From the NCBI RefSeq assembly GCF_014207565.1, contig NZ_JACHGJ010000014.1:8359-72358 (forward strand): a stretch of 64,000 bases of DNA, read 5' to 3'. The notes below the pieces were generated by a model. That model had not been told where the DNA came from, did not search any database, and saw only the letters and a list, made by a program, of their open reading frames with translations. A program made the translations under genes and the position numbers. Source of the stretch: Spirochaeta isovalerica (GTDB lineage: Bacteria; Spirochaetota; Spirochaetia; DSM-2461). Positions 24,653 to 62,600 of the stretch are shown piece by piece (positions within the stretch are counted from its first letter, which is position 1; each line of letters opens with the position of its first letter).

Positions 24653-25126
24653 ATGAGAATTGGTTTCGGATATGACCTGCACAAACTCAAAACCGGTCGA
24701 AAACTGATGATCGGAGGAGTCCATATCCCCTGCGACTTCGGAGAAGAAGCCCATTCCGACGGAGATGTTCTGCTTCACGCGGTAATCGATGCTCTGTTCG
24801 GAGCTATCGCTGAGGGTGATATCGGCAGCCACTTTCCACCGAGCGACATCCGCTGGAAAGATGTCAGCAGCCTTGTTCTGCTGAAAAAAACAATGGAAAT
24901 TATTAGAGAAAGAAAATTCAGCCTGATAAACCTCGATTGTACTGTCGTTCTCGAAAAACCGAAGCTCCTTCCTTACAAAGAAGAGATTCGCCAAACCATG
25001 GCCGATGCCCTGGGGACAGATATAAGCCGGATATCCGTAAAAGGAAAAACAAAGGAAAAAGTAGATGCGGTTGGCCGGGGCGAAGCCATCGAAGCCTACG
25101 CTTCACTGCTTCTCGCCTCCGATTAA
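24653..25126 (+). CDS. ispF: 2-C-methyl-D-erythritol 2,4-cyclodiphosphate synthase
   Basis: IGFGYDLHKL and HSDGDVLLHAVIDALFGA motifs. Length is 157 aa. Confidence 0.92.
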   Translation: MRIGFGYDLHKLKTGRKLMIGGVHIPCDFGEEAHSDGDVLLHAVIDALFGAIAEGDIGSHFPPSDIRWKDVSSLVLLKKTMEIIRERKFSLINLDCTVVLEKPKLLPYKEEIRQTMADALGTDISRISVKGKTKEKVDAVGRGEAIEAYASLLLASD

Positions 25127-26709
25127 CTGTCGCTTAAGAGACTTTTTCTGCTGAAACGCTCTTCGTTCAGGCGATTACCCAGCCTGTCATATTCAAAACG
25201 GGACATGGCAATACCCTCGTTGTTCTCGACTATCTGTTCATCGATGCCGTAGTTGGTCACACTGATTTCCTTACCGCGGTAGTCTCGATCCCATTTGATA
25301 ATGGCGACACCCTTATTATCAGCTTTCAACTGGCCGTATAATCCGAAATTTCGCTCCTCGATAACAAAGCCGAAATTATCATATGACCAGGTTTTCATAA
25401 ACACACCTGTTGTATTGGTCACGGCCTCCTGGTTCTCATCGTAATACCGTACGGCTGTCCGGTTTCCCTTATCATCATACTGCCACTTGATAACAGCGAC
25501 GCCCATGGAATCCTTTATGAGAACATTATAATCCGAATAGTGTTCCGAGCTGGTCATGAGCCCTCTCTCGTTATAGGCCCACTTATAAATGGATATGCCC
25601 CAGGGATCTTCCTTCAGCTCATTATCGAGTCCGTAGTGCTTCTCTTCAAGCTTATTGCCCATAGCATCGTAAACCCATCGGTAGGAAGCCAGCCCCATAT
25701 CATCCTCTACAGGATTTTCCCTGGCATCGAGATTATACATTTCCAGCTCATTTCCCTGTTTGTAATGGGTCCAGGTGTATATGGTCACTCCGTGTTCATC
25801 GGGAGTCAGAACTCCCCAGCGGTTGTAGTGCTCTTCACGGATGCGGTTGCCAAACTCATCGTAAGCCCATTTATAGGTAGCGACCCCGCGGTTGTCCTCA
25901 AAAGGGCGGTAAGCCGTATTCATATTGGTCTTTTCCATCAGATATCCATTGGAATCATAGATGAATGATGATGCAGATGTTCCCGTGTTATCCACAGCCG
26001 GCTTCCGATCTTTATCGAAACGGCGTTCCATAACCATATTGCCGTCGCTGTCCCAGGTGTAATTGTAGAAGGCGATTCCTGTACGGGTTGAATTGACCGG
26101 CTTTCCGTCCCGCCCGAAAGCTCCCCGCTCGATAACGTTGCCCCGGGCATCATATTTGTAGAAATCCTGAAAGGTTCCATGAGCATCGGTTATGCGGTTG
26201 CCGAAGGCGTCGAGGAAAAAGGAGCTGATGCGGTGTCCTTCCTTATCCAGGGTCCAGATTTCAGCGGAGACTCCGTCTTTATTCGGTTTCAGGTTACCCA
26301 GCCTATCGTAAAAGAAGACGGCTGTTGTCTTTCCCCATTCATCGAGCCTGAGACGTATGGAATAGGCATCAGTCCGGTTGTTTGGAACCGGATTCCCGGA
26401 GCTGTCTTTATATCGGTATCGGATATAATTGTCCTCGTACTCCACATCGACAGATTGCGCTCCCAGAACGGGATCCAGGCTGACTCTTCCATTGATCAGG
26501 TACTCCACGGATACGAGCCTTCCCTTCTTGAAACCGAGCCGATAACTGTTTACCTCTTTCTCCGTTTCGCTGTCGAGGGGAGACACCCCGTGTATCCTGT
26601 ACATTCCATCCTGCCTGACGGAGCGGAAATAGAGATATTCCTCCCCACCGGCAAATAGAGTCATATTGATTAATATCATCAGGGCTGCAATGAGTCGCGA
26701 TTTCTTCAT
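25123..26709 (-). CDS. Secreted protein with about 12 degenerate ~38-aa YD-like tandem repeats
   Basis: Signal peptide MKKSRLIAALMILINMTLFAG. Repeat units are of the form xxGxxxYKWxYDxxGNxxxExxY, for example YKWAYDEFGNRIREEHY, YRWVYDAMGNKLEEKHY and IKWQYDDKGNRTAVRYY. Confidence 0.65.
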   Translation of the reverse strand: MKKSRLIAALMILINMTLFAGGEEYLYFRSVRQDGMYRIHGVSPLDSETEKEVNSYRLGFKKGRLVSVEYLINGRVSLDPVLGAQSVDVEYEDNYIRYRYKDSSGNPVPNNRTDAYSIRLRLDEWGKTTAVFFYDRLGNLKPNKDGVSAEIWTLDKEGHRISSFFLDAFGNRITDAHGTFQDFYKYDARGNVIERGAFGRDGKPVNSTRTGIAFYNYTWDSDGNMVMERRFDKDRKPAVDNTGTSASSFIYDSNGYLMEKTNMNTAYRPFEDNRGVATYKWAYDEFGNRIREEHYNRWGVLTPDEHGVTIYTWTHYKQGNELEMYNLDARENPVEDDMGLASYRWVYDAMGNKLEEKHYGLDNELKEDPWGISIYKWAYNERGLMTSSEHYSDYNVLIKDSMGVAVIKWQYDDKGNRTAVRYYDENQEAVTNTTGVFMKTWSYDNFGFVIEERNFGLYGQLKADNKGVAIIKWDRDYRGKEISVTNYGIDEQIVENNEGIAMSRFEYDRLGNRLNEERFSRKSLLSDS

Positions 26710-26713
26710 GTGA

Positions 26714-28273
26714 TTAAACTCCCTGTTTCCTTCCGCCTCCGCAGGGCGGTGTCAAACGGTTGAGGCGGTTCTGCTCTTCCGCCTGCTTATATATTTCCGA
26801 ATAGACCAGAAAATCATTAAATTGCCGGTCTCTTTCTTTCTTGAAGTCTTCCTCTTTCCAGAGCTCTCTCTGTTGAAGCAGAGTTCTCTGAACCGAGACA
26901 GGATCGGCGACGGTTTCGAAAACGAGTTTTCCGCCGGCTGTTTCGATCTCCACATCTCCATAATTGAAAAGATACCTTAAAAAACCTTTTTTTTCAGCTT
27001 TTACGTTCGTTACGAACCCGATATCTGCAAGATTGGATGTTTCGCTCTTTCCGAAAGGCTTCCTGTTTATATCGATGATCTTTCCGCCTGCCACTTTATA
27101 GAGATCGTTTCTCCAATCCTGTACCCGCCACAGCATAATAGCGATAAATGGGATAAGAGTCAAAAGAAGATAGGTTCCTCCGCTATCGCGAAACAACCAA
27201 ATGAGAAAAGAAACCGATCCGATAGCAAGAATCTGCCACCAGATAGAAAAGAAAAGATAGATTCCCGACTTTCTGAACAGGACTTCCCCGGGAGATTGTG
27301 ATTCTTCCTGACTCTTTTCGGAACTGTGGATATCCTCTCTGACTTCGAAGTGATTTTCAATTCGCTTGCGGATTTCCACTCTGTCCCGGTCTTTCATCCG
27401 GTTTGACCGGGTTGCGAGATATTGTGAGATTTCCTGTTCGATTTTCTGGGGCCGGTCCAGGTGTTCCATAAGCAGAACGGTACCGGCTGCCGTCTGTATA
27501 TGAAGATTTCCCACATTGAAGAAACGGTTTTTCAGCTTTTTCTTCTGCACCATGATTCCGCAGATCTGATCTACAGGAAGAGTGATCTGCCTGAGACCCG
27601 GAGGATTAAGACTGAACCTGACAGATGTTAATTCAGATCCTCGAAGAGAGTATTTTTCAGCCAGCCAGAGAATGAGACATAGGGCTGAATAGATGAAAAT
27701 CATAAGAGAAGCGGCTTTGTAAAACCAGTTCTGATAGGGAAAAGAAACAGAACTCATAGAGAGAACAGTCATGGCAATGAGGATAAGAAAAGGATACTGA
27801 AGGCGTTCAACAAGAAAGAATCCGCTTTTTCTCCAGGTCAGGGCATTATCATTTGAAGCCGGCTTTTTAAGAGAACTTTCATTTTTTCCGATTTTGAGTC
27901 TGCCGCGCAGCTTGTTGTAATCGCTTTTCTTTAATCTTCCGAGTAAGGCGACTAAGGACTCTCTCTCCGTTTTGAGATACCTTCCGGAACTTCGTGAAAT
28001 CAGAGTCTGCTCATGGGTCGTGTTATCAAAAATATCTTGGGGATCCGTAAAGTCTCCCGGGAAGAAAAAGTCCTTTTGACTATTATCTGCTGATGCAGAG
28101 CAGAACTCCCCTTCGAGAAAAATATAAAGAGCACCTTTCCCATCGTTTTTATAATATAGAACAGCGCCTTCATCGCAGGTATATTCAGTAAATATCTCAG
28201 CGAGTTGACCCGCGGCTGAGGATGAAAGTCCGAAAAAAAGAGGGTGAGTATATATGTCAGAGTACGTATCCAT
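26714..28273 (-). CDS. Membrane protein with an N-terminal cNMP-binding-like domain and two bacterial PH (YdbT/bPH_2-type) membrane modules
   Basis: The N-terminal ~120 aa fit a cyclic-nucleotide-binding beta-roll pattern. Two repeats of TM-hairpin plus PH-like beta region follow at aa ~165-290 and ~345-470. Confidence 0.55.
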   Translation of the reverse strand: MDTYSDIYTHPLFFGLSSSAAGQLAEIFTEYTCDEGAVLYYKNDGKGALYIFLEGEFCSASADNSQKDFFFPGDFTDPQDIFDNTTHEQTLISRSSGRYLKTERESLVALLGRLKKSDYNKLRGRLKIGKNESSLKKPASNDNALTWRKSGFFLVERLQYPFLILIAMTVLSMSSVSFPYQNWFYKAASLMIFIYSALCLILWLAEKYSLRGSELTSVRFSLNPPGLRQITLPVDQICGIMVQKKKLKNRFFNVGNLHIQTAAGTVLLMEHLDRPQKIEQEISQYLATRSNRMKDRDRVEIRKRIENHFEVREDIHSSEKSQEESQSPGEVLFRKSGIYLFFSIWWQILAIGSVSFLIWLFRDSGGTYLLLTLIPFIAIMLWRVQDWRNDLYKVAGGKIIDINRKPFGKSETSNLADIGFVTNVKAEKKGFLRYLFNYGDVEIETAGGKLVFETVADPVSVQRTLLQQRELWKEEDFKKERDRQFNDFLVYSEIYKQAEEQNRLNRLTPPCGGGRKQGV

Positions 28274-29249: not shown

Positions 29250-29663
29250 TTAATTCATTAATTCGAAGTCTGAATTATCTACATTGATTATAGAATCACC
29301 ATCAACAGTGACTCTCATATAATTTATTAACCAATAGACATCTCCTGTATTTAAATTATCATCTCCATCGATGTCGACAAGCACATCAACATCGACAATA
29401 TCACCGCCATCGAAAACGTGAGCAGGATATCCAACCGGTACAGATGTATCAGAACCTGAAAAACCAAGAACTTTTGTTCCGGCAATAAAATCATTTCCTA
29501 TGTATGATTCAAAATAAATACCAGAAACTCCTGGATCAAAATCGGGAATAGAGCTGATATTTGAAACACTGACTGTTATGGTTCCATCAGAAAAAGAAAG
29601 TCCATCACAAGAAGCGAACAGCAGTACAGCTACTACAGCAAATAAGAGATAAATTTTTTTCAT
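29250..29663 (-). CDS. Small AT-rich, Asp-rich lipoprotein with dockerin/thrombospondin-like Ca-binding motifs
   Basis: Likely start at MKKIYLLFAVVAVLLFASC (rc of 29661-29663). The track ORF extends to 29828 across a terminator, so I trimmed it. Motifs DVDVLVDIDGDDNLNTGD are present and the gene is visibly more AT-rich than its neighbours. Confidence 0.55.
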   Translation of the reverse strand: MKKIYLLFAVVAVLLFASCDGLSFSDGTITVSVSNISSIPDFDPGVSGIYFESYIGNDFIAGTKVLGFSGSDTSVPVGYPAHVFDGGDIVDVDVLVDIDGDDNLNTGDVYWLINYMRVTVDGDSIINVDNSDFELMN

Positions 29664-29757: not shown

Positions 29758-29782
29758 AAAAACCCTCCCGATAATGGGAGGG
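29757..29782 (-). terminator. Rho-independent terminator after the beta-barrel OMP gene
   Basis: On the minus strand the stem is CCCTCCC attatc GGGAGGG followed by TTTTT (plus-strand hairpin 29763-29782, A-run 29757-29762). It lies directly after the OMP stop at 29806. Confidence 0.75.
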
Positions 29783-29805
29783 CTATCAATTCAGAGACGT
29801 TAATA

Positions 29806-31068
29806 TCAATAAATATACTGAACTCCAACCATTACAGAGACACCATCAACCATATCTACCCCGAGTTCCCAGACATCATTATCCTTGTTCCAGGAGAAGG
29901 TATCATCTCCATCGCCGATAAAGAAGTTGGTATAGCCGAGAAGATTGAACCCTTCAAAGACATTCCAGCTGAATCCGGCGGTCAGCATCGCTGACAGATC
30001 GATGGGGCTGAAAACACTCCGCAAAGAGAAGTTCAGATTCTGCCCGTAGGCAAAGGCGATTTCGGGATACAGCATTAGCGCATAAGTACCCGCGGATCCG
30101 GCATCCTCTCTCCAGTCGAGGAAGGGAAGAAAAACAGATTCCACCCGGAAGGTCAGAGAATTTCCGTAACCGACCTCCACCATATGAAAAAGCCCGAAAC
30201 TTATATTCCATGTGTCTTTTATAATGTCCGCCAGATCGTCTCCTGCCGCAAAGGGAATAGCCAGAGAGCAGTTCAGATAAAAATCAGCACCCAGGTTGCC
30301 CTGAATGGAAAAATACGGTCGCTGAAACGCGGGAATCGTCAGGGATTCATCTCCATCGGTGACTATAATATCGTAGTCGATGGTATCCGTTCCATCAAAG
30401 TAATATCCGAGTTCAACTTTCAGGTCGCCGAGCTTGGTATATACCCGTCCTCCCGCGCCGAGATCCAGGACATTGCCCAGTCCGACAGGCGTCGTCCCTG
30501 AAAAAATCATCTCAGGAGCCCGCAAAAGCAGTTCGATAAAGGAAAACCGACCCAGGGGAATGTTGACCGATGTCATCCAGGCTGTTTCCGTTCTCACTTC
30601 CGATCCCACAAGATTGACATTAGGGGAAATGCTGCCGAAGACAACATCTCCGGAGTTGAAGACAAAGCCGTCTCCCCACCCCAGTCTTGTCTTGCCCACA
30701 GTCAGACGGAAAGAAGGAAATTTCGCTTTTACATAAGCTTTCTGAAGGGTGATGACAGGAATTCCGGAGATATCGGGATAACTGAAATCAAGTGCGAAAT
30801 CAGCGCGGACATTAGCATTTCCAGTCGATTTGAAGGATAATGCTCCCGTACCGGCCATACCATACGCCCAGTATTTGTCACCGACAGATGGAAGCACGGG
30901 AGGAACCCATGTACCTCCGGCATCATGATATCCTTCCGTACCCGGATTTACTTCCCGGCTCTGCATCACCGTGTTATAGAGCGTCATATCAATTGTGATA
31001 TTGTTCTCAGCGGAGAGAAACGGCGCTGCCGCCAGAAGCAGCAGCACCGGAAATAAGCGCTTTACCAT
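29806..31068 (-). CDS. Putative outer-membrane beta-barrel protein, last gene of the GntR-SPFH-ABC-LolA-like operon
   Basis: Signal peptide MVKRLFPVLLLLAAAPFLSA. The 420-aa body shows alternating amphipathic beta-strand patterns rich in G/Y/F. The C-terminal aromatic ...GVQYIY is typical of beta-barrel OMPs. The start overlaps the upstream gene. Confidence 0.6.
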   Translation of the reverse strand: MVKRLFPVLLLLAAAPFLSAENNITIDMTLYNTVMQSREVNPGTEGYHDAGGTWVPPVLPSVGDKYWAYGMAGTGALSFKSTGNANVRADFALDFSYPDISGIPVITLQKAYVKAKFPSFRLTVGKTRLGWGDGFVFNSGDVVFGSISPNVNLVGSEVRTETAWMTSVNIPLGRFSFIELLLRAPEMIFSGTTPVGLGNVLDLGAGGRVYTKLGDLKVELGYYFDGTDTIDYDIIVTDGDESLTIPAFQRPYFSIQGNLGADFYLNCSLAIPFAAGDDLADIIKDTWNISFGLFHMVEVGYGNSLTFRVESVFLPFLDWREDAGSAGTYALMLYPEIAFAYGQNLNFSLRSVFSPIDLSAMLTAGFSWNVFEGFNLLGYTNFFIGDGDDTFSWNKDNDVWELGVDMVDGVSVMVGVQYIY

Positions 31069-31814
31069 GACAGTTCTTCCAGAGAGAAAAGGTTGTTGTC
31101 AAGCCGGATGTTGATTTCGATATCGTTGATTTTCATAACCGTTTCCGTGTCGGTTTTCATTTTGTCGACAATTCTGGTTTCCACACCGATCATCCTTCCG
31201 TTGATTTCCCGGGCCTGAAGAACTTCCATTTCCTTGAGGAGTCTTCCCGATTTGGTGTAATACTCCCCTTTCCATCCGAGGAAGCTCTCTTTGTCGATCC
31301 AGACTTTCTGTACGGGATAGGGTACGGTTCTCACGGTCGCCGTCATTTCCACGACGTAGCAGTCATGCCCTTTAAAGCTTTCCTCACCGAGCAGCTTTAT
31401 GTCATACTGGGATAACCGGTCTTTGTTGCCGGTCATATCCTCATAGGAAACATCGGACCCGAGCATGGACTGTCTGAGCATGGATCCCTGCATACGGATA
31501 AGTTCTTCCGCATCGGGGTAGTAGAGATAGAGCTCATCTTCCGTTCTGAGAACTTTCTGCCCTCTTTCCGCGGTACTGGTAAATTCGATGAGAGACTCGT
31601 CGGCCCCTCTGGACCAGGATTTGAATGTGCTGACTTTGGTGCCGAAGCGGTCTTTAATCCGCATTTCTCCGGTTGCCGCCGATGTGTCGAAAACCTGAAT
31701 ATCATCAGCTCTCCGGACGATTTCCTCCCCTGTCAAAGCCGTAAGGCTGACGGGAATCATCAGAGCTGCAATTACGATAGGTATAAATAATTTGTTTTTC
31801 ACATGAACCTCCAA
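31062..31814 (-). CDS. LolA-like periplasmic protein (outer-membrane lipoprotein-sorting protein family)
   Basis: Signal peptide, 250 aa, with the composition of the family usually found beside MacB/FtsX transporters. It sits 11 nt downstream of an FtsX permease. Confidence 0.6.
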   Translation of the reverse strand: MEVHVKNKLFIPIVIAALMIPVSLTALTGEEIVRRADDIQVFDTSAATGEMRIKDRFGTKVSTFKSWSRGADESLIEFTSTAERGQKVLRTEDELYLYYPDAEELIRMQGSMLRQSMLGSDVSYEDMTGNKDRLSQYDIKLLGEESFKGHDCYVVEMTATVRTVPYPVQKVWIDKESFLGWKGEYYTKSGRLLKEMEVLQAREINGRMIGVETRIVDKMKTDTETVMKINDIEINIRLDNNLFSLEELSW

Positions 31815-31825
31815 TTTCTCATTTC

Positions 31826-33061
31826 CTAAATATATCTCAGCGCTTCGACGGGCTGAATTCTCGCCGCTTTGCGTGAGGGTATAAGTGTGGCCAGCGAAGC
31901 CACGACTACAGAATAGAAGAAGACGAAAATGGTTCTTCCCGCTTTCAGCTGGGGATAGAGATAGGAAGATATCTCGAAATCCAGTCCGGACATGGCGTCA
32001 GTGAAATCGATCCCCACCCGGCTCAAATACAGGACGATGCCGATTCCCAATACCACTCCGATGGATGTTCCGATGATGCTGATGATTGTCCCTTCGAGAA
32101 AAAAGAGTCTGGTCAGCTCGCTGCCATGCATACCCAGAGCGCCGAGCGTACCGATTTCCCTCATTCTTTCGTAGATGACCATCATTGTCGTGTTGATGAT
32201 GACCGTGCTGCCGAGAATAAAGAAGATAAATGCCATCACGTTGTAAATCATATCCGCCAGCTTGAGAAAACCGTACGTCGTGCTTATCTGGTCCCATGAC
32301 CGGACATCGTATTCCGTTCCCGATCCGTTTTTCAGTTCTTCTCCCAGTTTTGCGGCAAAATCTTTTGCGTCGTATCCCTCTTTCATTTTTATAAGAACTT
32401 CCAGGACTTCTCCGTCCATTCTCAGGAAATACTGGGCCGTATCGAGTGGAATCCAGAAGAATTTGGCGTTCAGTTCACCGACGGGAAGAGCGAAGAGACC
32501 GACGATTTTAAGCGTAATGGCGTTGGTGCCCCTGGCTGCCGTTGTTGACATAACCGTTACCTTATCTCCTATTTTGAGATTGAGGTCCCGGGCCAGAACA
32601 GCCCCCATGATCATCTCTTTTTCTCCGTTTACAGGCAGGCGCCCTTCTTTCAGAGAGCTTTTGAAATCCATATAGGCGTCTTCTCTGTCAAAGTCCGCTC
32701 CGATTCCGACGGCTCCGAAATTGGATCCGCCGATGTAAAGGCTTGATGGGAAAGTCGTACGGGGAACAAAGCTCTCGATCTCTTCCATTCCCGCCAGAGC
32801 GTTCTCCACCTTTTCCTGATTCACAGTAAGGTGCATGGGGTTGTACCGTTCGAATTCCTCAAAACGGGCGTTCTTCACACGGACTTCGCCGGTGTAATAA
32901 TTGATCAGATTGTTTGCCATATCAGTACTCATTCCCGCTATGAGCGAGAACATCAGGACTATCGTCATGGCCGCGACTCCGATAGCCATTCCCGAAAGTA
33001 TAGACCTCCTGCGGTTTCGCGATATATTCCTGAAGGCTGTTTTCAACAGTTTCGTATTCAT
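31826..33061 (-). CDS. ABC transporter permease, FtsX/MacB-like with a large periplasmic domain
   Basis: N-terminal LKTAFRNISRNRRRS, a first TM, a ~230-aa periplasmic domain, then three C-terminal TMs in FtsX topology. Confidence 0.85.
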   Translation of the reverse strand: MNTKLLKTAFRNISRNRRRSILSGMAIGVAAMTIVLMFSLIAGMSTDMANNLINYYTGEVRVKNARFEEFERYNPMHLTVNQEKVENALAGMEEIESFVPRTTFPSSLYIGGSNFGAVGIGADFDREDAYMDFKSSLKEGRLPVNGEKEMIMGAVLARDLNLKIGDKVTVMSTTAARGTNAITLKIVGLFALPVGELNAKFFWIPLDTAQYFLRMDGEVLEVLIKMKEGYDAKDFAAKLGEELKNGSGTEYDVRSWDQISTTYGFLKLADMIYNVMAFIFFILGSTVIINTTMMVIYERMREIGTLGALGMHGSELTRLFFLEGTIISIIGTSIGVVLGIGIVLYLSRVGIDFTDAMSGLDFEISSYLYPQLKAGRTIFVFFYSVVVASLATLIPSRKAARIQPVEALRYI

Positions 33062-33073
33062 TTGTTCTCCCCC

Positions 33074-34321
33074 TTACTGATGTCTCAGGCAGGACGGAAT
33101 ATCCATCTTCAAAGCCCGTTTAGTCGGGAAATAAGCGACAAGCGACGAAATAACGATTCCCGCAATAAAAGCTTTCACCATGGTGCCGGGATTCCATTCA
33201 CCGCGGAAAACCCCCTGGATGCGGTAACCCATATCCATATCGCGCATGATCGATGTAAAGTCGATGCCTTTTTCCACTATAAAGAAATCCGCTCCCATTC
33301 CCAGGACCAGCCCGATCAGCGATCCGACGATTCCGATTCCCGCCGCTTCGATCATAAAAGCGATTCTGATCTTGCTGTCCGCCATCCCCAGAGACCTCAT
33401 CATGCCGAGCTCTCTGGTCCGCTCGAATATGGCCATCAGCATGGTATTGGAAATACCGACAGCCGCAATGATGAATATGAGGAACAGAATCATCCCGGTT
33501 CCACCCCTTTTGGCCTCAGCCAGAGCGAGAAAATCCTTTGCCATGGTTTCCCATCCCATAACGGTAAGTCCGTCTCCGTTCAGCATATTCTGAATTCTGA
33601 CAACTTCCGCGTCCACGTCGGCATTGGCCGGCAGCTTGATATTGATCTCTGTTGCCGCTCCATCCATTGCCAGATAATCATTGGCCGTTTCAAAGGGCAT
33701 CATGAGAAGCGTACGATTCACATTGGGGTTGGGACAGTTGAGAATCCCGACGATCTCGAGGTCCATTGCCTCGTAAAATCCGCCGTTTCCTCTGGCGACG
33801 ATGGTTATCCAGTAACCCACTTCGGCGCCGATGTCTTCGGCCATCCAGGATCCCATGACCACAGCATCTTCGCCCGGTTCAAGAAACCGTCCGTCCACAA
33901 GAGTGTCGCCGAACTCAAAAACATCAAAATCCTTCTCCGTATCAATGGCAAAGACGCTGACTGGAAGATTTCCCTCTTCACCGAAATCCTCTTTATTGAG
34001 AATAAGGTCTCCGCCGAAGCTGATTCTCTTGGTAGCGGCTATCTTTTCCGCTTCCAGTTTATTCAGAATCTTATCGGGATCGGCAATGCTGAGATCAAGC
34101 GGTTTCTGAAAACGGTTTGCCCAGTACTCCTCATTGAGAATTCTGGCCGAGGCCGTTTCGTACCATTTCAGGTTCCGGACCGATTCGTATTCGGCGCCCA
34201 TGAGCATGGAATCTATGAAAATATACATCATCAGCCCGAAAGCAATGGCACTCGCGGTTATGATTGTCCGTCTTTTATATCTGGTCAGATTTTTAAAGGC
34301 CAGTGAAATTAAAAATTTCAT
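33074..34321 (-). CDS. ABC transporter permease, FtsX/MacB-like (second permease)
   Basis: LAFKNLTRYKRRT N-terminus and FtsX topology. It is paralogous to 36624-37871. Confidence 0.85.
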   Translation of the reverse strand: MKFLISLAFKNLTRYKRRTIITASAIAFGLMMYIFIDSMLMGAEYESVRNLKWYETASARILNEEYWANRFQKPLDLSIADPDKILNKLEAEKIAATKRISFGGDLILNKEDFGEEGNLPVSVFAIDTEKDFDVFEFGDTLVDGRFLEPGEDAVVMGSWMAEDIGAEVGYWITIVARGNGGFYEAMDLEIVGILNCPNPNVNRTLLMMPFETANDYLAMDGAATEINIKLPANADVDAEVVRIQNMLNGDGLTVMGWETMAKDFLALAEAKRGGTGMILFLIFIIAAVGISNTMLMAIFERTRELGMMRSLGMADSKIRIAFMIEAAGIGIVGSLIGLVLGMGADFFIVEKGIDFTSIMRDMDMGYRIQGVFRGEWNPGTMVKAFIAGIVISSLVAYFPTKRALKMDIPSCLRHQ

Positions 34322-34323
34322 GG

Positions 34324-35001
34324 TTATCTCCTTTCGTCGCTCTGAATCTGCCCGTCGTGCAGCATAACTAATCTGCTGGCATACTCCATGACCATCTTGT
34401 CATGTGTCGAGAAAATGAAAGTTGTTTTGTGCTTTCTGTTCATCTCTTTCATCAGCTCCAGAATTTCTTTTCCCGTATCGGAATCGAGGTTGGCTGTCGG
34501 CTCGTCGGCGAGAACGATCTCCGGATTTTTAACCAGGGCTCTGGCTATGGCGACACGCTGCTGCTGACCTCCCGATAGCCTTGAAGGCCTTCTGTGCTCC
34601 ATCCCCTCAAGACCCACTTCTTTGAGAATAGCCATAGTTCTATCCTGTATCTCTTTTTCACCGAGGTTGAGAAGCGACAGCACAAAGGAGACATTTTCAT
34701 AGGCTGTCAGTACAGGGATCAGGTTATAGGTCTGAAAAATAAACCCGAGATTGTTCCGGCGGAAATTTGTCTTTTCCTTTTTATTCATAGATGAAATCTT
34801 TTCATCTTTTATTGAGATTTCACCGCCATCCATCTGATCAATGCATCCGATAAGGTTGAGCAGCGTGGTCTTTCCCGAACCGGAGGGACCGGCTATCGAG
34901 AGGAATTCACCTTTTCCAATCTCCAGAGATACGCCTCTCAGGGCTTTAACGACTGTTTCGCCGGCGTGATAATTCCGCACGACATTTTCAACTTTAATCA
35001 T
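34324..35001 (-). CDS. ABC transporter ATP-binding protein (LolD/MacB-type)
   Basis: Walker A GPSGSGKTT, the LSGGQQQRVAIARAL signature and Walker B ILADEPT. Length 225 aa. Confidence 0.92.
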   Translation of the reverse strand: MIKVENVVRNYHAGETVVKALRGVSLEIGKGEFLSIAGPSGSGKTTLLNLIGCIDQMDGGEISIKDEKISSMNKKEKTNFRRNNLGFIFQTYNLIPVLTAYENVSFVLSLLNLGEKEIQDRTMAILKEVGLEGMEHRRPSRLSGGQQQRVAIARALVKNPEIVLADEPTANLDSDTGKEILELMKEMNRKHKTTFIFSTHDKMVMEYASRLVMLHDGQIQSDERR

Positions 35002-36122
35002 TTTTCTCCTCCCGTCTCTTTATCTTCATGTACTGTTTCTTTGTTTTTCACCTGCCCGGGCAGGTCTTTGACTTTGTTCAGGGCAGCGGTTCCCATAACA
35101 GCCCCCAGATTCATATTATCCAGTGCCGAAGAAGGCATAAGCATCAGGCTGTTATTCTGCTTCAGCCCTTCGTATACCATATTCATGGCCCGGAGCTGGA
35201 GCGCCGTAGGGTTGCCGCTGTACTTCAGCGAAGCTTCTTCGAATTTCGCAGCCACTTCCACTTCCGCTTCTCCCAGGATAACCCGGGATTTCTTTTCTCT
35301 CTCCGCCTGGGCCTGCTTACTCATGGCATCCTCCAGCTCCTTGGGGATGATGATTTCCGTAATTTCAATGGAGAGGATTGTAATTCCCCAGGGATTGGTT
35401 TTCGCATCCAGCTTCTGCTGGATTTCATTACCCAGTTCTTCTCTTTCGGCCAGTAGAGTCGCCAGTTTATGCTTTCCGATCGCATCGCGGAGAGCCGTCT
35501 GTCCGGAGAGTGATACCGCTTCAAAATAATCCTCAACTTCCAGTACAGCCTGTTTCGGCTCCCAGATCATCCAGAATGCCAGGGCGTCCACATGGACGGG
35601 AACCGTATCGTTGGTCAATGTTTTTTCCGCAGTAAAGTCCGTCACCCGGATTCTCGTATCGACAAAAGCGGCGATTCTGTCCAGAAGCGGAATGAGAAAG
35701 AAAAGACCCGGACCATGAACTTTCTTGAACTTCCCGGCCCTGAGAATCACGACCTTGTCCCACTGATACACAAGCTGGATCGATGCGGAAATGACTATCC
35801 CCGCCGAGCCGGTCAGCATCAGCCATAGATAGGACCCTTCAAAGAGAGCGATAACATTGAGCTGAAGCGCGATAATCACAAAGATTACCATTGACCACAG
35901 CGGAAGGACCGTCAGGACGACCCCTGCTCCCAGTATGGCACCGGAAATCTTAACGATAGGCATCAGTTCCGATGACACGCCGTAGTTCACCTGAAAAAAA
36001 TATCCGGCCATGATAAACAGGCCGAGGAAGAGAAAAGAGACAGAACTGTAATGAAAATCCTTCTGGATTTTAAAACCTTTCATATTTTTGACTCTCTCTT
36101 CCCTGTTGTGCATGAGGTTCAT
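34998..36122 (-). CDS. SPFH/band-7 (stomatin/prohibitin-like) protein with a polytopic N-terminal membrane domain
   Basis: The N-terminal ~120 aa hold about four TM helices. The SPFH core follows, then a C-terminal coiled coil (QAQAEREKKSRVILGEAEVEVAAKFEEA). Start and stop overlap the neighbouring genes. Confidence 0.8.
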   Translation of the reverse strand: MNLMHNREERVKNMKGFKIQKDFHYSSVSFLFLGLFIMAGYFFQVNYGVSSELMPIVKISGAILGAGVVLTVLPLWSMVIFVIIALQLNVIALFEGSYLWLMLTGSAGIVISASIQLVYQWDKVVILRAGKFKKVHGPGLFFLIPLLDRIAAFVDTRIRVTDFTAEKTLTNDTVPVHVDALAFWMIWEPKQAVLEVEDYFEAVSLSGQTALRDAIGKHKLATLLAEREELGNEIQQKLDAKTNPWGITILSIEITEIIIPKELEDAMSKQAQAEREKKSRVILGEAEVEVAAKFEEASLKYSGNPTALQLRAMNMVYEGLKQNNSLMLMPSSALDNMNLGAVMGTAALNKVKDLPGQVKNKETVHEDKETGGEK

Positions 36123-36538
36123 TTTTTATTCCCTCCTCTTTCGTTTTCTGATTTTAAATCAGTCAGATAATCGATAATTTCATCGAGAGTAAAACCATAG
36201 GAACCGGCTTTGGAGATAAAAGTTTTCGTAATACCGGAGAGGACGCGCTCCCGCTCAACTTCATCGAGCTGAACTTCCTTTCTGCTGATGAATGTTCCCG
36301 TACCCTGCTGGGTATTGACGATGCCTCGTATTTCCATTTCGTTGTAGGCCCTGCCTACCGTATTGGGATTTATACGGAGATCCACGGCCAGGCTCCGCAC
36401 TGTGGGCAATTGCTCACCCTTGGTCAAGCGCCCGTCCGCTATGGCCATTTCCACCTGGAGAATAATCTGTTTGTAAAAAGGAACACCGCTCTTGGGGTCG
36501 AGACTGAATTCCAGTTTTTTTACTCCTGTTTCCGCCAC
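36119..36538 (-). CDS. GntR-family transcriptional regulator, short YtrA-like subfamily; first gene of the operon
   Basis: 139 aa. The winged-helix segment GEQLPTVRSLAVDLRINPNTVGRAYNEM is typical of GntR. GTG start with AGGAG RBS. Confidence 0.85.
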   Translation of the reverse strand: MAETGVKKLEFSLDPKSGVPFYKQIILQVEMAIADGRLTKGEQLPTVRSLAVDLRINPNTVGRAYNEMEIRGIVNTQQGTGTFISRKEVQLDEVERERVLSGITKTFISKAGSYGFTLDEIIDYLTDLKSENERGGNKK

Positions 36539-36559
36539 AGGTTTACTCCTATTGTCTAC

Positions 36560-36581
36560 TTGTACTATTCTTCTAGTACAA
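36560..36581. promoter_or_regulatory. Palindromic operator TTGTACTA-N6-TAGTACAA at the GntR operon promoter
   Basis: TGTACTA at 36561-36567 and TAGTACA at 36574-36580 are perfect inverted repeats. They lie 5 nt downstream of a minus-strand promoter with TTGACA (rc of 36609-36614), a 17-bp spacer and TATATT (rc of 36586-36591). A GT..AC core is typical of GntR operators. Confidence 0.7.
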
Positions 36582-36623
36582 TATAAATATAGCTCTTTAA
36601 TAAAAGGATGTCAAATTTAATTG

Positions 36624-37873: not shown

Positions 37874-37895
37874 TTGTACTAATACATTAGTACAT
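37874..37895. promoter_or_regulatory. Second copy of the TGTACTA-N6-TAGTACA operator, at the orphan permease promoter
   Basis: TGTACTA at 37875-37881 and TAGTACA at 37888-37894. The promoter has the same layout: TTGACA (rc of 37923-37928), a 17-bp spacer, TACATT (rc of 37900-37905), then 5 nt to the operator. Confidence 0.65.
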
Positions 37896-37943
37896 TAAAA
37901 ATGTAAACCCTGCGGTCAGGCTTGTCAAATTAATCCTGTAAAT

Positions 37944-38207
37944 ATGCTAAGATTGCCTATGCGGAAGGGAAAAATTCTTAAGGACATTCTGAAATTTCTG
38001 AATATATATCAGAATTCCATCATTCAATCGGATAACGAGACAGCCAATATCGAGCACTACCTGAGAGCCAAAGGACTCATGGACCTGGCGAGGTATTACG
38101 GAAGAACCGGAGTATTCGATAAGGACGTAATGGCTACTATCGATGGAGTATTCAAGGATATAGAGAATCTGACAATTTTACGGATTCGCGATGATCTCAA
38201 TAATTAG
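37944..38207 (+). CDS. Small hypothetical protein (87 aa), divergent from the orphan permease
   Basis: ORF with reasonable composition, no recognisable family. It shares the operator-bearing intergenic region. The 3' end overlaps the ftsK stop. Confidence 0.4.
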   Translation: MLRLPMRKGKILKDILKFLNIYQNSIIQSDNETANIEHYLRAKGLMDLARYYGRTGVFDKDVMATIDGVFKDIENLTILRIRDDLNN

Positions 38208-43905: not shown

Positions 43906-45279
43906 TTGAACAATAATGACTTCATGATGTCTCTCTTACCATATATGGCAATTCTCGGAGTTGTCATAGTCGGCTCCATCGTTACTTTAGTTCTCGTAAA
44001 GTCCTCCGGAGGAGGCAAAAGCAATGATAAATATCAGGGAAAAACGAAGACCACTATCCTGAAAGAAGCCAATAAGAAGCTGGCATCCAATCCCAAGGAT
44101 CCCAATGCGCTCATGGCAATTGCCGACATTTACTTCAGCGATAACAATTTTGCAAAAGCCATGAAAACCTATCGAATGCTTGTCGATCTCTGCGCGGTCA
44201 ATCCCGATCTGGATGAATATAAAATAAACCTCCGCTATGGAATCAGTGCCATGGAGGAGAAAATCTATAAAGAAGCCTACAAGAGCCTCATGCTCGCCCG
44301 GAATACGAAGCCCGAGGATTTCCAGACTAACGCCTATCTGGGAAAAATCGAATTCATGATGAAGAAGTATGATAAGTCTATCAGCTATCTTCTCTATGCA
44401 TTAAAGATTAAGCCGGACCACGATGAATCGGTGAAATATCTGGGAATGAGCTATTACAAAATGAAAAAGTACAAGGAAGCGGTTCCCCGTTTAAACAGAG
44501 CGGTGAGCGGACATCCCGACGATAAGGAAGCTCTTTTTGCTCTGGCTATCAGCTGTAATGAAACCGGCCGTGTGGAGCACGCCCTGAAGATTTTCACCCA
44601 CCTCCGGCCCGACCCGGTCTGGGGCCCCAAATCAGCCCTCTATTCGGGAACGATCCATACGAAAATGAGAAAACTCGACAAAGCTGTTATCGATTACGAG
44701 ATAGGCCTGAGACACGAGAACATCCCGACCGAAATACTTCTCGAACTCAAATACCGTCTGGCCGGAGTCCACAGTTCCGAAGGAAGACTCGACAAGTCTC
44801 TGGAAGTGCTGAAAGACATTACCAGAATCGATCCCGGATACAAAGACGTGCAGACCCAGGTGCGGAAGTTCAGAGAGTTGAGTTCCAACAAAAATCTGCA
44901 GGTTTACCTCAACGCCCCGGCGACGGATTTTGTATCCCTTTGCCGGAGCATCACAAACATTGTCATCAAGAAAACGAAAGTCAATATTATAGATGTAGCT
45001 TTTACCAATGCGGAATACGTGGATATCGTGGCGGAAGTCAAAGCCCAGAAATGGGAGGACCTGATCCTCTACCGCTACGTCCGCACAGACGGCCTGGTTG
45101 GCCAGATAATGGTCCGTGATCTCTATGAAAAGCTGAAAGAACATCATGCAGGAAGAGGCTTCTGCTTTTCCGCCGGAGGCTTCACCGAGTCGGCGGAACA
45201 GTGGGTGGAGGCCAGACTGATCGACCTGATCTCAAAAGACAAGCTGATTCAGTACCTGAACAAAATCGATACGATTTAA
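43906..45279 (+). CDS. Membrane-anchored TPR-repeat protein with a C-terminal Mrr-like (restriction-endonuclease-fold) domain
   Basis: N-terminal TM helix and about eight TPR-like repeats. The C-terminal ~120 aa (ILYRYVRTDGLVGQIMVRDLYEKL...GFCFSAGGFTESAEQWVEARLIDLISKDKL) follows the Mrr_cat pattern. Confidence 0.6.
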   Translation: MNNNDFMMSLLPYMAILGVVIVGSIVTLVLVKSSGGGKSNDKYQGKTKTTILKEANKKLASNPKDPNALMAIADIYFSDNNFAKAMKTYRMLVDLCAVNPDLDEYKINLRYGISAMEEKIYKEAYKSLMLARNTKPEDFQTNAYLGKIEFMMKKYDKSISYLLYALKIKPDHDESVKYLGMSYYKMKKYKEAVPRLNRAVSGHPDDKEALFALAISCNETGRVEHALKIFTHLRPDPVWGPKSALYSGTIHTKMRKLDKAVIDYEIGLRHENIPTEILLELKYRLAGVHSSEGRLDKSLEVLKDITRIDPGYKDVQTQVRKFRELSSNKNLQVYLNAPATDFVSLCRSITNIVIKKTKVNIIDVAFTNAEYVDIVAEVKAQKWEDLILYRYVRTDGLVGQIMVRDLYEKLKEHHAGRGFCFSAGGFTESAEQWVEARLIDLISKDKLIQYLNKIDTI

Positions 45280-54731: not shown

Positions 54732-54804
54732 TCGCATATTTGCCCCGGTAGCTCAGGGGATAGAGCAACCGCCTCCTAAGCGGTAGGTCGGACGTTCGAA
54801 TCGT
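54732..54804 (+). tRNA. tRNA-Arg (anticodon CCT)
   Basis: Manual cloverleaf: acceptor GCCCCGG/CCGGGGT, D-arm GCTC..GAGC, anticodon stem ACCGC/GCGGT with loop CTCCTAA, T-arm GGACG TTCGAAT CGTCT. No CCA is encoded. Confidence 0.85.
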
Positions 54805-54875
54805 CTCCGGGGTATTTTTTTTGTCTATATAGTTGACAAAAAATGACTGCCTATATAATATGCAGTTCGTTGTCT

Positions 54876-54949
54876 GGAGGCGTAGCGAAGTTGGTTATCG
54901 CGCCGGCCTGTCAAGCCGGAGATCGCGGGTTCGAGGCCCGTCGCTTCCG
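54876..54949 (+). tRNA. tRNA-Asp (anticodon GTC), copy 1
   Basis: Cloverleaf: acceptor GGAGGCG/CGCTTCC, anticodon loop CTGTCAA, T-arm GCGGG TTCGAGG CCCGT, discriminator G. Confidence 0.85.
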
Positions 54950-54982
54950 TACCTGGAAGCAATTCCATTATTACAGACAACT

Positions 54983-55056
54983 GGAGGCGTAGCGAAGTTG
55001 GTTATCGCGCCGGCCTGTCAAGCCGGAGATCGCGGGTTCGAGGCCCGTCGCTTCCG
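54983..55056 (+). tRNA. tRNA-Asp (anticodon GTC), copy 2, identical to copy 1
   Basis: A 74-nt sequence identical to 54876-54949, repeated 107 nt downstream. Confidence 0.85.
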
Positions 55057-59635: not shown

Positions 59636-62600
59636 TTATTTTACAACCATGACCTTTCTCGTTTCATCTATTCCCGGTGCTACAATCCTTATAAAGTATA
59701 CGCCCCTGGCTACGATTCTGCCACCGGAGTTGTGTCCGTCCCATGCTGTTGAATACTCGCCGGCTTCCTGACGTCCCCTCTGCAGCACATCGACCATGGC
59801 CCCGGAAATGTCGAAAACCTGTATGGTTACCATACCCGCTTCAGCCAGTTCGTAGTGAAGATTAGTCGTTTCCCCGTTCTCCGGATTGATGACGTTCTTG
59901 AGAATGGTTACGCCGCCGACCTGGGTTGTTATGTCGTGAATAGCGAAGGTCCAGGGCTTGATCTGGCGGTACCAGTCGCTGGCAGAAGAATTCTCGATTC
60001 TGGCGGCAAAGAGAGAGTATGCCGGCAGATAGTAGAGGAATTCCACATCGGCTACCGATTCCAGCTCGGGATCGTCGTTGTCGAAACTGTGAACCCTTAG
60101 CTGATTGGAAGGAGATGTCCCGGCTGTCGCTTCTCTTTCATCCGGGTTGGGAGAGGGGACGATGCCGTAGAAGTCGTAAATATCGTAGTCGTCTGCTGCG
60201 GGAACGTTTCCGAAAGAGACGCCCGGGAGCCACAGACCGTCCCGGTCGTTATTCTGTCTGTATGCAGATGGAACATCAACGTCGAAAAAGAGCTGAACCT
60301 GCGGATCGAGACCGCTGGGAGCGCTGTGTCCGCTGTTGATATGGGTCGTCAGCTCGATGGGCTGGTCCTGCAGCCAGGTGCCGCCTGTGAAGTCGCGGAT
60401 GGTTCCGATTCCGCCGCGGTCCGGATCGGTTTGGGACTCGTCGGTGGCGTAGACGGGCTGGAGGATGGCGTCGCCGGTCAGGCCTAGGGCGAGGTCGGAG
60501 ACCCGGTGGGCGCCGCTTGCCGTTCCTCCTCCGATCATCGGGTTATTGCTGTCTCCGACATTCCCGGTTGCCAAATCGGGTATGGCTGTCGGGTCTGCAG
60601 AAGGATAATTTGCTGCAAATGTTCCCCAGGTGTCATTCCAGTTATCCATATCATCAATATCATTAACAATCTGGAGGATTGCTCCATTCAAGATTTCATC
60701 AGCTGTAACGAGGGCGTCGAGCGTCAATTCCAGCTCTTTAGTTCCGGTACCGGAAGTTGTTATTCTGGCAAGAGATGAGATGTTAGCGGCTCCGCCGTAA
60801 GAGAAATCTACCGCTTCTATCACAGTCTCGTCGGGCTGACGTACATATTCGGAAAACTGCACGTAAATTTTGTTTTTTTCCGAACTCGATAGTGTGTAGT
60901 TGTAAATGGGGGCTGCGTTATCAATAGGAGTCTCCGAAGGAACGGCGACACCATACTCGACTAAAGCTCCGCCTGTTGTGGAGAATAGAGACGTGTTTGT
61001 CATCAGCCTCCACTGTGGTGTAACATCTGTATCGGTATATTCTTTTTCAACAAGATGTATGAAAAACTCTGAGGCAATCGAATTATCACTGTCGGAAAAC
61101 CCGTTTAATCCGTACGGAAGTACTGAATTGTATGAAGTATCGACTTCATATCCATCGACCCAGGCCGTAACATCATCAAACCTGTTAGGGTCATCGAGTA
61201 TGGCCACACTCTCAACGCGAACGCGAATTCTGTCTAGACGACCGTTCAGGTCCGAGTCCTCTGCCCAGCTGACGACAATGGCGATAAAAAAGAACCAGTT
61301 AGTGTTGTTACCGCCATCGTTACATGTCGTGTCAGGAGTAATGGGATTTATAGCATGACTGTTTATGACATTAACATACTCAAATGTCGCGGTTGCCGAT
61401 CCTCCGGCTGAGGGAAAGTCGATTTCCAGCTCCCATTGTGTCGGAGAATTCGTGCTATCAAGTGTTATCAGATTTCCTGACACACCCCTGATAGTCATAT
61501 TCCGATAAATGGTCTGGCGTTTTCCGGCACCGAAGAGAATCGTGCCTCCTGCAATCTGGTAGCTGAAGTTATAAAAACTGTTATCTCCCCAGATAGAAAT
61601 AGTTCCTGGATTTTGAAACACTACCGTGCTAGTGTCATATTGAAAAATTCCGCTATAGGGATCTAAAGCTGCATTTCCATCTCCATCGGAATCGAATGTA
61701 TCGGCTGTAGCGGAGAACGTAATGGTATTGTCATTTGCCGCCAGAATTCCCGATGAAAGAAGAAGACCCTTATCAATAGTGAGAGCCGATGAACCGGCCT
61801 GGAGAGTTGTGGTTCCGCCTGCTTTTTCAAGCTCATAAAATGTTTCGTTTGTCGTAATTGAGCCTGTCCCGTCGAATATGACACGGTTGTTATTATGGGT
61901 AAATGTTCCGTTATCAGTCCAGTCTCCGGCAATATTCATATTCTGACTGCCGGAATCGAAAGTGCCGTTTGTAATCTGAATGTTTCCATTAACATCGATC
62001 GGATCAAGAAGTGTAACAGAAGTTCCATCAAGTTCCAAATTATTAAAAGGCAAAGTGTTACTGGTAAGATCCTGATTAGCGGTTCCGTCAAAGAGAACTG
62101 TCGATCCTGCTACTGTAAAAGTATCCAGATTTGTCAGATCAAGATCCCCGTCAATCAACAGCGAATCTCCGGAAATGTCTATTGTTGTATTTCCTATATT
62201 TTGGATGGATATAACTCCATCGATCTCCATTTGATCATTTGTCGTTAATACAGAGCCGGCTGCAGTAGAACCCAGAGTGACATTGAAAAAGACCTGAGAG
62301 TTACTGGTAACTGCTGAGTTACCATCAAAAACAGCCGTACCTGTTGCAGTAAATGCTCCTCCTGTAAAATCTACATCTCCGAAGAAAGAGATTGTCTGGG
62401 CGTTGTCAATCAGAGTTCCCGTGCTTACTAGCATATTTCCATTTACATCTGTTATATCCTGCAAAGTGACACTGATGCCGCTGATAGTTATATTGTTAAA
62501 GGGAAAACCCGATGATGTGAGGTTCTGATTTACTGCTCCATCAAAAACAACGGTAGAATTTGTCTCGACAAATGTATCAAGAGATGAAAAATCGAGATGT

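Follow-up and report, generated by a model that had tools for sequence, protein, structure and literature searches.

A repressor-controlled ABC transporter, LolA-like carrier and beta-barrel in Spirochaeta isovalerica: a candidate Lol-like export route of the Spirochaetia

The delivery to the outer membrane of hydrophobic molecules besides lipopolysaccharide (LPS) and classical lipoproteins is poorly understood, notably in spirochaetes, whose envelope differs from the Escherichia coli model and which lack LolB. The question is raised by a 64,000-nucleotide stretch of the Spirochaeta isovalerica genome (contig NZ_JACHGJ010000014.1, positions 8,359 to 72,358; hereafter the window, in whose coordinates all positions are given), in which a block of seven genes encodes a GntR-type repressor, an SPFH protein (slipin), an ATP-binding cassette (ABC) ATPase, two FtsX-type permeases, a LolA-like carrier and an outer-membrane protein (OMP). 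What might such an apparatus move, and under whose control? The answer that we favour, giving it slightly better than an even chance, is an inducible, Lol-like carrier-and-barrel export route for hydrophobic or amphiphilic cargo, distinct from a housekeeping lipoprotein pathway. Its observed basis is the gene order, the domain and fold identities, the conserved synteny, and a conserved promoter and operator. The system is new, being a Spirochaetia-specific variant of recurring, uncharacterised exporter-carrier-barrel modules, and literature searches found no paper on this spirochaete operon or on the combination of a LolA-like protein with FtsX.

A conserved motor, carrier and barrel

The seven genes of the block, and an eighth that adjoins them, are as follows.

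36119-36538, minus strand: GntR repressor gene, open reading frame (ORF) of 139 amino acids (aa)
34998-36122, minus strand: SPFH (slipin) gene, ORF of 374 aa
34324-35001, minus strand: ABC ATPase gene, ORF of 225 aa
33074-34321, minus strand: permease A gene, ORF of 415 aa
31826-33061, minus strand: permease B gene, ORF of 411 aa
31062-31814, minus strand: LolA-like carrier gene, ORF
29806-31068, minus strand: OMP (beta-barrel) gene, ORF of 420 aa
36624-37871, minus strand: third permease gene, eighth of the regulon, ORF of 415 aa; GGAGG precedes an ATG at 37850, the likely true start

An earlier note on this DNA had described seven packed minus-strand genes with gaps of 12 nt or less or overlaps of 4-7 nt, and its ORF coordinates agree exactly with those found here (junctions from GntR to OMP of -4, -4, +2, +12, +11 and -7 nt, negative values being overlaps). 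From the spacing alone, the seven genes are taken to form one transcript. Within the block, Pfam confirms GntR, Band_7, ABC_tran, FtsX with MacB_PCD (twice) and LolA_like domains, and a membrane-fusion (HlyD-type) domain was not found by Pfam and NCBIfam searches in any of the eight gene products. The identities of the ABC ATPase and the two FtsX permeases, the lack of a membrane-fusion protein and the more general picture of a coherent, envelope-spanning gene set, all drawn in the earlier note, are thus upheld by domains and folds.

The two permeases share the MacB-type layout of one transmembrane helix (TM1), about 220 periplasmic residues and TM2-4, as judged by Pfam and hydropathy, and are 28% identical to each other. 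The best Protein Data Bank (PDB) match of permease A is Bacillus subtilis YtrF (5.8e-16), followed by LolF, LolE and MacB, and the nearest solved proteins of permease B are LolF, LolE, LolC and MacB. Against the NCBIfam models the ATPase scores 226 bits for LolD (TIGR02211, cutoff 307.75), 223 for DevA (cutoff 295.8) and 221 for DarD, all below cutoff, which is consistent with a place in the LolD/DevA/MacB nucleotide-binding domain group. With the lolCE equivalog (TIGR02212, cutoff 362.45 bits), permease B scores 150.7, permease A 92.8 and the third permease 98.7. The labels 'LolD-like' and 'LolCE-like' should therefore be read as naming the nearest curated families only, with scores far under the equivalog cutoffs.

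The carrier matches Pfam family PF17131, LolA_like, with an E value of 7.6e-54 and above the 30-bit gathering score, and its AlphaFold2 (AF2) model has the extended half-barrel fold of the LolA superfamily. Solved structures of the PF17131/TP0789 family include 3BK5, 3BUU and 4Z48, and the closest one to the carrier is Porphyromonas gingivalis LolA3 (PGN_0947, PDB 9TP6); the LolA-like fold anticipated in the earlier note was accordingly recovered. LolA3, crystallised in 2026, has neither the arginine of LolA nor the leucine of LolB and showed no binding to LolB; its authors conclude that it serves a separate function (PMC13103446). The signal peptide of the spirochaete protein lacks a lipobox cysteine, and on sequence grounds the protein is read as a soluble periplasmic member of the superfamily, of TP0789/LolA3 type. 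It does not fall in the LolA family PF03548 and bears the marks neither of a LolB partner nor of a bifunctional insertase; a weak match to the N-terminal domain of MucB/RseB is present (PF03888, E 3.6e-5). Residues 100-130 are the most conserved stretch of the carrier, with 17 invariant residues (PDAEELIRMQGS.LRQS.LGSD.SYEDM), and are also the sole part with an AF2 confidence score (pLDDT) below 50. One possibility for this region is a mobile lid, another a docking loop.

The OMP, which matches a hypothetical protein of S. isovalerica with 100% identity, begins with MVKRLFPVLLLLAAAPFLSA, a Sec signal peptide, and ends with the aromatic C-terminus ...VQYIY. Its model (pLDDT 89.6) contains about 20 strand elements, the first starting at residue 22, and resembles monomeric porin-size barrels, with Wzi the closest, and OprD/Occ, AlgE and MOMP also among the matches. 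The 420-aa product is thus predicted, as the earlier note had proposed, to be an outer-membrane beta-barrel, with about 18 strands and belonging to an unnamed Spirochaetia family. Membership of the Wzi family (PF14052) fails at 13.4 bits against a cutoff of 30.1 (E 0.038, residues 105-135 only), and no Wzi-type N-terminal helical domain precedes the first strand of the model. The OMP has no match to DUF1302 (PF06980) at E <= 10, nor to any Pfam or NCBIfam model in the libraries used, and no TolC-type trimeric outer-membrane factor is encoded, the OMP model matching monomeric barrels. A word-indexed search returned 114 relatives, every named source being a spirochaete, and 383 cluster representatives were found at E <= 1e-3 among 1.84 billion; by these counts the barrel family is small and sharply bounded.

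The five core genes travel together. A genome scan gave 79 loci, all from Spirochaetia (Sphaerochaeta, Marispirochaeta, Oceanispirochaeta, Sediminispirochaeta, Pleomorphochaeta and many metagenome-assembled genomes), in which the carrier gene was located in 72 and the ATPase gene in 61; wherever enough upstream DNA is available, the order ATPase, permease A, permease B, carrier, OMP holds without exception. The carrier gene runs into the OMP gene, the overlap being 7 nt here and 4 nt in at least 17 related loci, which fits a stoichiometric pair. A 13-pair GC-rich hairpin (31021-31049, minus strand) lies in the signal-peptide codons of the OMP, right after this overlap, and may either result simply from the Leu/Ala codons there or affect translational coupling.

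The third permease, which also has FtsX and MacB_PCD domains, shares 56% identity with permease A and 23% with permease B. It is missing from the closest relative (L009), which has the same flanking genes, and is present in two copies in another locus (L001); it is a lineage-specific addition. Extra permease-A-type copies occur in the window and in nine related loci, at four different positions, and permease B is never duplicated. That permease A is the sole duplicated permease suggests, by analogy with LolE and LolC, that it selects the cargo and that permease B is the constant subunit.

Repressor, operators and slipin

The control elements of the locus are as follows.

36586-36614, minus strand: main promoter, TTGACA-17-TATATT, 11 of 12 consensus matches
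36560-36581, no strand (palindrome): main operator, TTGTACTA-N6-TAGTACAA, directly downstream of the -10 hexamer and before the GntR start
37900-37928, minus strand: promoter-like site of the third permease, TTGACA-17-TACATT, 10 of 12 matches
37875-37894, no strand (palindrome): second operator, exact TGTACTA-N6-TAGTACA, between the -10 hexamer and the ribosome-binding site (RBS) of the third permease
29761-29784, minus strand: intrinsic terminator-like hairpin and T run, 9-bp stem with 6 GC pairs, 22 nt past the OMP stop

In a 10.5-kb scan, the main promoter is the top promoter-like site and that of the third permease ranks second; the GntR gene downstream of the former starts at a GTG codon behind an AGGAG RBS. 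Shuffled sequence contains at least as many promoter-like and terminator-like sites as the rest of the region, and weight is therefore given to the named sites alone. Internal terminator-like hairpins (e.g. 31049-31021 and 30307-30288) were considered and set aside, 11 being found against 9.6 +/- 4.2 in shuffled sequence, and no riboswitch or leader RNA in the region was matched by Rfam. The exact core TGTACTA-N6-TAGTACA occurs at two sites in the window, both at promoters of this locus, and 0.64 sites would be expected by chance in 64 kb even with three mismatches allowed.

In 36 related loci the palindrome recurs ahead of GntR, at a constant spacing from a -35 hexamer TTGACA and a -10 hexamer TATAtT. 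An operator-anchored alignment of 39 sites shows TTGACA at a fixed distance, the TATAtT -10 and then TTGTAyTA-N6-TArTACAA, and in many loci a second operator-like half-site lies within the spacer. In a Sphaerochaeta-like group the operator sits directly after the -35 hexamer instead. The strong promoter, the palindromic operator and the terminator described in the earlier note were therefore all found again. The boundary that it drew around the unit stands for the seven genes, but an eighth, the third permease with the second operator, had been overlooked. Since a separate promoter-like site and an exact operator copy precede this gene, the regulon appears to consist of two adjacent units with eight genes, its boundary shifting upstream to about 37930.

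The GntR protein (PF00392, 54.7 bits) has a winged helix-turn-helix at residues 22-84 of 139 and a tail of about 55 aa, and the NCBIfam models that it matches best are Rv1152 and PmtR, two YtrA-type families whose cutoffs it does not reach. The features of the YtrA subfamily are present, namely an N-terminal winged helix-turn-helix, a short C-terminal region without an effector domain, first position in an ABC operon and a palindromic operator. The protein is therefore classed, as it had been before, as YtrA-like, an assignment made on length and context rather than phylogeny.

The SPFH protein matches Band_7 (121.6 bits, Pfam), its relatives being named 'slipin family protein' by NCBI, and its nearest solved structures are Pyrococcus horikoshii stomatin (8.9e-37), human stomatin (1e-35) and QmcA (2.5e-24), HflK/C matching far more weakly (HflK, 1e-7). 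Hydropathy places hydrophobic segments over residues 25-118, judged by eye to be about four helices, which agrees with the polytopic SPFH protein of the earlier note. K and R are frequent both at the N-terminus and after the last helix, which under the positive-inside rule probably places the SPFH domain in the cytoplasm.

Repressor and slipin behave as a pair. Among 56 loci with room further upstream, both are present in 44, neither in 12, and one alone in none; a further locus with less upstream room (L017) has a truncated GntR and no slipin. A TetR gene lies directly upstream of the ATPase gene in 10 of the 12 pair-less loci and in two shorter loci (L025, L026, L028-L030, L037, L038, L043, L044, L047, L069 and L070; six were verified by Pfam). 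Because slipin and GntR are both missing from these TetR-bearing relatives, the slipin is suggested to be a regulatory or scaffolding accessory outside the transport core. The earlier note was thus right as to the presence of an SPFH protein, but slipin and GntR are an optional, strictly paired accessory. The slipin-repressor pairing appears to be undescribed, as literature searches for YtrA with slipin or stomatin found no link between them. On-demand exporters, unlike essential housekeeping pathways, typically have a local repressor of their own, and the presence of one here, with TetR instead in some loci, argues for on-demand export and against a housekeeping lipoprotein pathway.

Cargo, direction and competing explanations

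From these parts we infer an order of hand-off, a direction of transport and a kind of cargo, together with roles for the slipin and the third permease. Two ATPase subunits would power a heterodimer of permeases A and B, giving a LolCDE-like type VII (MacB-fold, mechanotransmission) ABC transporter, which would extract a membrane-embedded molecule from the outer leaflet of the inner membrane and load it into the hydrophobic groove of the PF17131 carrier. The carrier would then hand the cargo to the translationally coupled barrel of about 18 strands, for insertion into the outer membrane or passage through it. Paralogues of permease A, including the third permease, probably swap in to alter the substrate range, with permease B as the constant partner. 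The YtrA-like repressor would bind TGTACTA-N6-TAGTACA at both promoters and keep expression off, and the cytoplasm-facing slipin might scaffold the transporter in a membrane microdomain or relay the state of the membrane to the repressor. As to direction, all characterised MacB-fold transporters export or extract and none imports, to our knowledge.

The nature of the cargo is suggested by the company that PF17131 carriers keep in other phyla, as seen in a tblastn search with the carrier through records of plasmids and chromids. In Sulfitobacter, a carrier lies beside a type I polyketide synthase (PKS) and an MMPL pump. In Burkholderia, a carrier, an ATPase and a fused double permease are followed by a 380-aa protein (DUF1302, 21.2 bits against a cutoff of 23.2), and on an E. 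coli plasmid a ketosynthase/crotonase cluster of fatty-acid or polyketide-like character includes an ATPase, an FtsX permease, a carrier and a 399-aa protein. Persicobacter has TetR, a 378-aa signal-peptide protein, an ATPase, two permeases and a carrier, and Vibrio campbellii has a carrier, two permeases, an ATPase and a 446-aa protein with a C-terminal F. In Acinetobacter baumannii (L085, 6064-9714, plus strand) a 1216-aa fusion of SRPBCC/START-like lipid-binding, MMPL and PF17131 domains is followed by a 424-aa porin-like protein, giving the exporter-carrier design in fused form, and the ORF sizes there (424, 621 and 255 aa) fit A1S_0117-0119 of the operon for the secreted metabolite Ac-505, in which A1S_0116 has been described as an RND exporter and A1S_0117 as porin-like (PMC5376624). 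Thus, as far as gene neighbourhoods can tell, an exporter, a PF17131 carrier and an adjacent candidate OMP recur in Bacteroidota and Proteobacteria, often in lipid, polyketide or lipopeptide clusters. The arrangement, called atypical in the earlier note, is indeed non-canonical, but it is not unique, recurring in other phyla and having an analogous cluster in Borrelia.

Published work points to similar cargo. LolA-like proteins have been proposed as carriers of flexirubin or aryl-polyene lipids (PMC11885536, PMC8253772), and a cofit set of DUF1302, DUF1329, BNR and RND-pump proteins has been proposed to export an envelope component (10.1101/072470). The frequent association of PF17131 carriers with lipid, polyketide or lipopeptide clusters or with MMPL pumps argues against a housekeeping lipoprotein pathway and in favour of a lipid, lipidic metabolite or toxic amphiphile being exported on demand.

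Several points weigh against export of such cargo by an inducible carrier-and-barrel route. By sequence scores, LolD and LolCE are still the nearest curated families of the ATPase and permeases, and a lipoprotein cargo would be compatible with the system. The parallel with other phyla appears to be one of gene order and a shared carrier family, because their partner OMPs have no significant similarity to the spirochaete barrel: homology was sought with hhalign, hmmsearch and BLASTP and rejected, only G-x-x-R-x-x-WG-x-G being recovered at E 0.005-0.3, and the partner OMPs are themselves weakly related to one another (e.g. Vibrio-Burkholderia, 8e-19). The barrel might be no more than a simple pore for diffusion, and next to the spirochaete operon there are no cargo, biosynthetic or lipid-modifying enzyme genes.

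The best-surviving alternative, which we nevertheless regard as unlikely, is a specialised second Lol pathway, in which a subset of lipoproteins (e.g. surface-exposed ones) would be extracted by the ABC complex and ferried by the LolA3-type carrier, and the barrel would act as insertase or flippase in place of LolB. The rank of LolD and lolCE as best curated families, the nearness of LolF and LolE among solved permeases and the heterodimeric permease architecture, as in LolCDE, are all in its favour, as is the fact that spirochaetes have no LolB yet many surface lipoproteins, the Borrelia BBJ23-BBJ29 cluster having been read likewise (PMC13078400). However, the ATPase reaches 73% of the equivalog cutoff and the permeases about 40% or less, the operon is under a dedicated repressor (with TetR directly upstream in some loci), and PF17131 carriers are found elsewhere in PKS, nonribosomal peptide synthetase and fatty-acid clusters or in MMPL fusions; in addition, P. 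gingivalis LolA3 does not engage LolB (PMC13103446).

Somewhat less probable again is a stress-induced resistance or detoxification pump of the MacB/YtrEF/BceAB kind, which would clear exogenous amphiphiles such as antimicrobial peptides, detergents or hydrophobic toxins, the carrier and barrel replacing the duct formed by a membrane-fusion protein (MFP) and TolC. YtrA-type and TetR-type repressors typically govern such pumps, PmtR is among the best NCBIfam matches of the repressor, YtrF is the best solved relative of permease A, and a varying number of permease-A paralogues would suit a shifting substrate range. Nevertheless, coupling within the operon is tightest between carrier and OMP, suggesting dedicated delivery over a duct, and none of the characterised efflux pumps known to us relies on a soluble LolA-type carrier. 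This explanation differs from an export route for hydrophobic cargo only in where the cargo comes from.

The weakest candidate, a module for FtsEX-like mechanotransmission, for RseB-like sensing of mislocalised lipids or for uptake of hydrophobic nutrients through the barrel, could draw on the weak MucB/RseB match of the carrier, on some MacB-fold complexes such as FtsEX that transport nothing and on an MMPL-LolA_like fusion of Thalassolituus that is induced 42-fold on long-chain alkane (PMC6304351), but is improbable given that no hydrolase, anti-sigma factor or signalling partner is encoded in the operon (Pfam and NCBIfam domains), that no MacB-fold importer is known to us and that strict five-gene synteny with a private barrel is easier to explain by vectorial transport.

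A wider generalisation can be put forward, although only tentatively and as a doubtful one: that a PF17131 carrier, translationally coupled to a private barrel, is a general third route across the periplasm for lipids and hydrophobic molecules, parallel to Lol and Lpt, and that the slipin is a membrane-state sensor for an effector-less YtrA-type repressor. Carrier and barrel would then be a plug-in module, mounted on type VII ABC engines in spirochaetes, Persicobacter, Vibrio and Burkholderia, or on MMPL/RND engines in Acinetobacter, Sulfitobacter and Porphyromonas. A slipin acting as sensor would explain why GntR and slipin are always paired and why neither occurs in loci with a ligand-binding TetR.

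The operon is a clean and strongly conserved three-tier case, with an ABC extractor, a soluble carrier and a private barrel under a defined repressor and operator. Crystal structures of LolA3-type carriers exist without assigned functions or partners, and the conserved neighbourhood offers candidate partners in the permease pair and the barrel, and with them a testable hypothesis for the carrier family, including Treponema pallidum TP0789 and P. gingivalis LolA3.

The surroundings of the operon were also inspected. Its flanks encode FtsK, UppP, a lytic transglycosylase (SLT), EamA and an RHS-repeat protein, and were rejected as a clue to cargo, synteny being limited to the nearest relatives. 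A small predicted lipoprotein (29250-29663, minus strand; lipobox LFASC) lies just past the operon terminator; it was considered as an operon member and rejected, being beyond the terminator and conserved in none of the 79 related loci. Between FtsK and the third permease is an 87-aa ORF without a Pfam match (37944-38207, plus strand), which is 87% identical in L009 and 67% in L001. The RHS-repeat protein (25123-26709, minus strand, 528 aa) adjoins a 519-aa, partly hydrophobic-looking protein without a Pfam match (26714-28273, minus strand), and both are syntenic in L009 and L007. Farther away in the window are an unusual 457-aa fusion of TPR repeats with a C-terminal Mrr_cat restriction-endonuclease domain (43906-45279, plus strand), three clustered tRNA genes (54742-55056, plus strand) and, close to the window end, a very large ORF of 1451 aa (59636-63991, minus strand).

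Comparison with known systems

Among single components, the barrel is closest in fold to Wzi, the capsule-anchoring lectin (PDB 2YNK), but with 13% identity, without the N-terminal helical domain and in an operon without capsule genes. The slipin shares its SPFH domain most closely with archaeal and human stomatin and with QmcA, and differs from the stomatin, QmcA and HflKC systems in its extended multi-helix N-terminus, the lack of an NfeD partner in the operon and its strict co-occurrence with GntR at an ABC operon. In its control, the operon resembles B. subtilis YtrA-ytrBCDEF and Staphylococcus aureus PmtR-pmtABCD, where a short GntR protein without a large effector domain is encoded first in an ABC operon and autoregulates through a palindrome; those systems, however, belong to monoderm hosts and have no carrier, barrel or slipin.

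With MacAB-TolC the spirochaete system shares the MacB fold of the permeases (FtsX with MacB_PCD) and the family of the ATPase. It differs in having an unfused ATPase and a heterodimeric permease; the membrane-fusion protein and a TolC-type factor or duct are both lacking, and in this respect the system is not a canonical MacAB-TolC. The likeness to LolCDE-LolA-LolB goes further, comprising two distinct four-TM permeases with MacB-type periplasmic domains, a separate ATPase, a soluble LolA-superfamily carrier and, presumably, the logic of extraction and hand-off. Nevertheless, the ABC components fall far under the Lol equivalog cutoffs, the carrier belongs to PF17131 rather than LolA, a barrel of about 18 strands stands in place of LolB, and the operon is repressor-controlled and includes a slipin. 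The view of the earlier note that neither canonical arrangement applies is thus confirmed.

The nearest parallel in a spirochaete is the Borrelia burgdorferi lp38 cluster BBJ23-BBJ29, described in silico in 2026 as comprising a MacB-like ABC transporter, a LolA-like protein and an Omp85-type barrel, and proposed to export non-polar ligands (PMC13078400). Both clusters combine a MacB-type ABC transporter, a LolA-like protein and their own barrel without a membrane-fusion protein. The Borrelia cluster differs in that its barrel, BBJ25, is of Omp85 type, its carrier is of BBJ28 type, and it has two TPR proteins and only one permease. Orthology was considered and rejected, as tblastn of the carrier against plasmids gave no Borrelia match, profile comparisons with BBJ25 and BBJ28 were negative and the folds differ.

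In Proteobacteria and Bacteroidota, the DUF1302/DUF1329/BNR/RND set, A1S_0116-0117 and E. coli ApeL/M/N likewise place a LolA-superfamily element by an exporter, usually with a candidate OMP of 380-450 aa, and the cargo proposed for such exporter-carrier-OMP modules is envelope lipids or lipidic metabolites (10.1101/072470, PMC5376624, PMC8253772). Their engine is mostly MMPL/RND and not ABC, their OMPs have no significant similarity to the spirochaete barrel, and none has been mechanistically characterised. In P. gingivalis W50, an operon of TetR, MMPL, an 'outer membrane lipoprotein-sorting protein' and a hypothetical protein tops, by P-value, the list of genes most over-expressed under hemin limitation (PMC10470040); the sorting protein might be LolA3. 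Set beside this TetR-MMPL-carrier operon, the spirochaete version would be driven by an ABC engine where P. gingivalis has an MMPL one.

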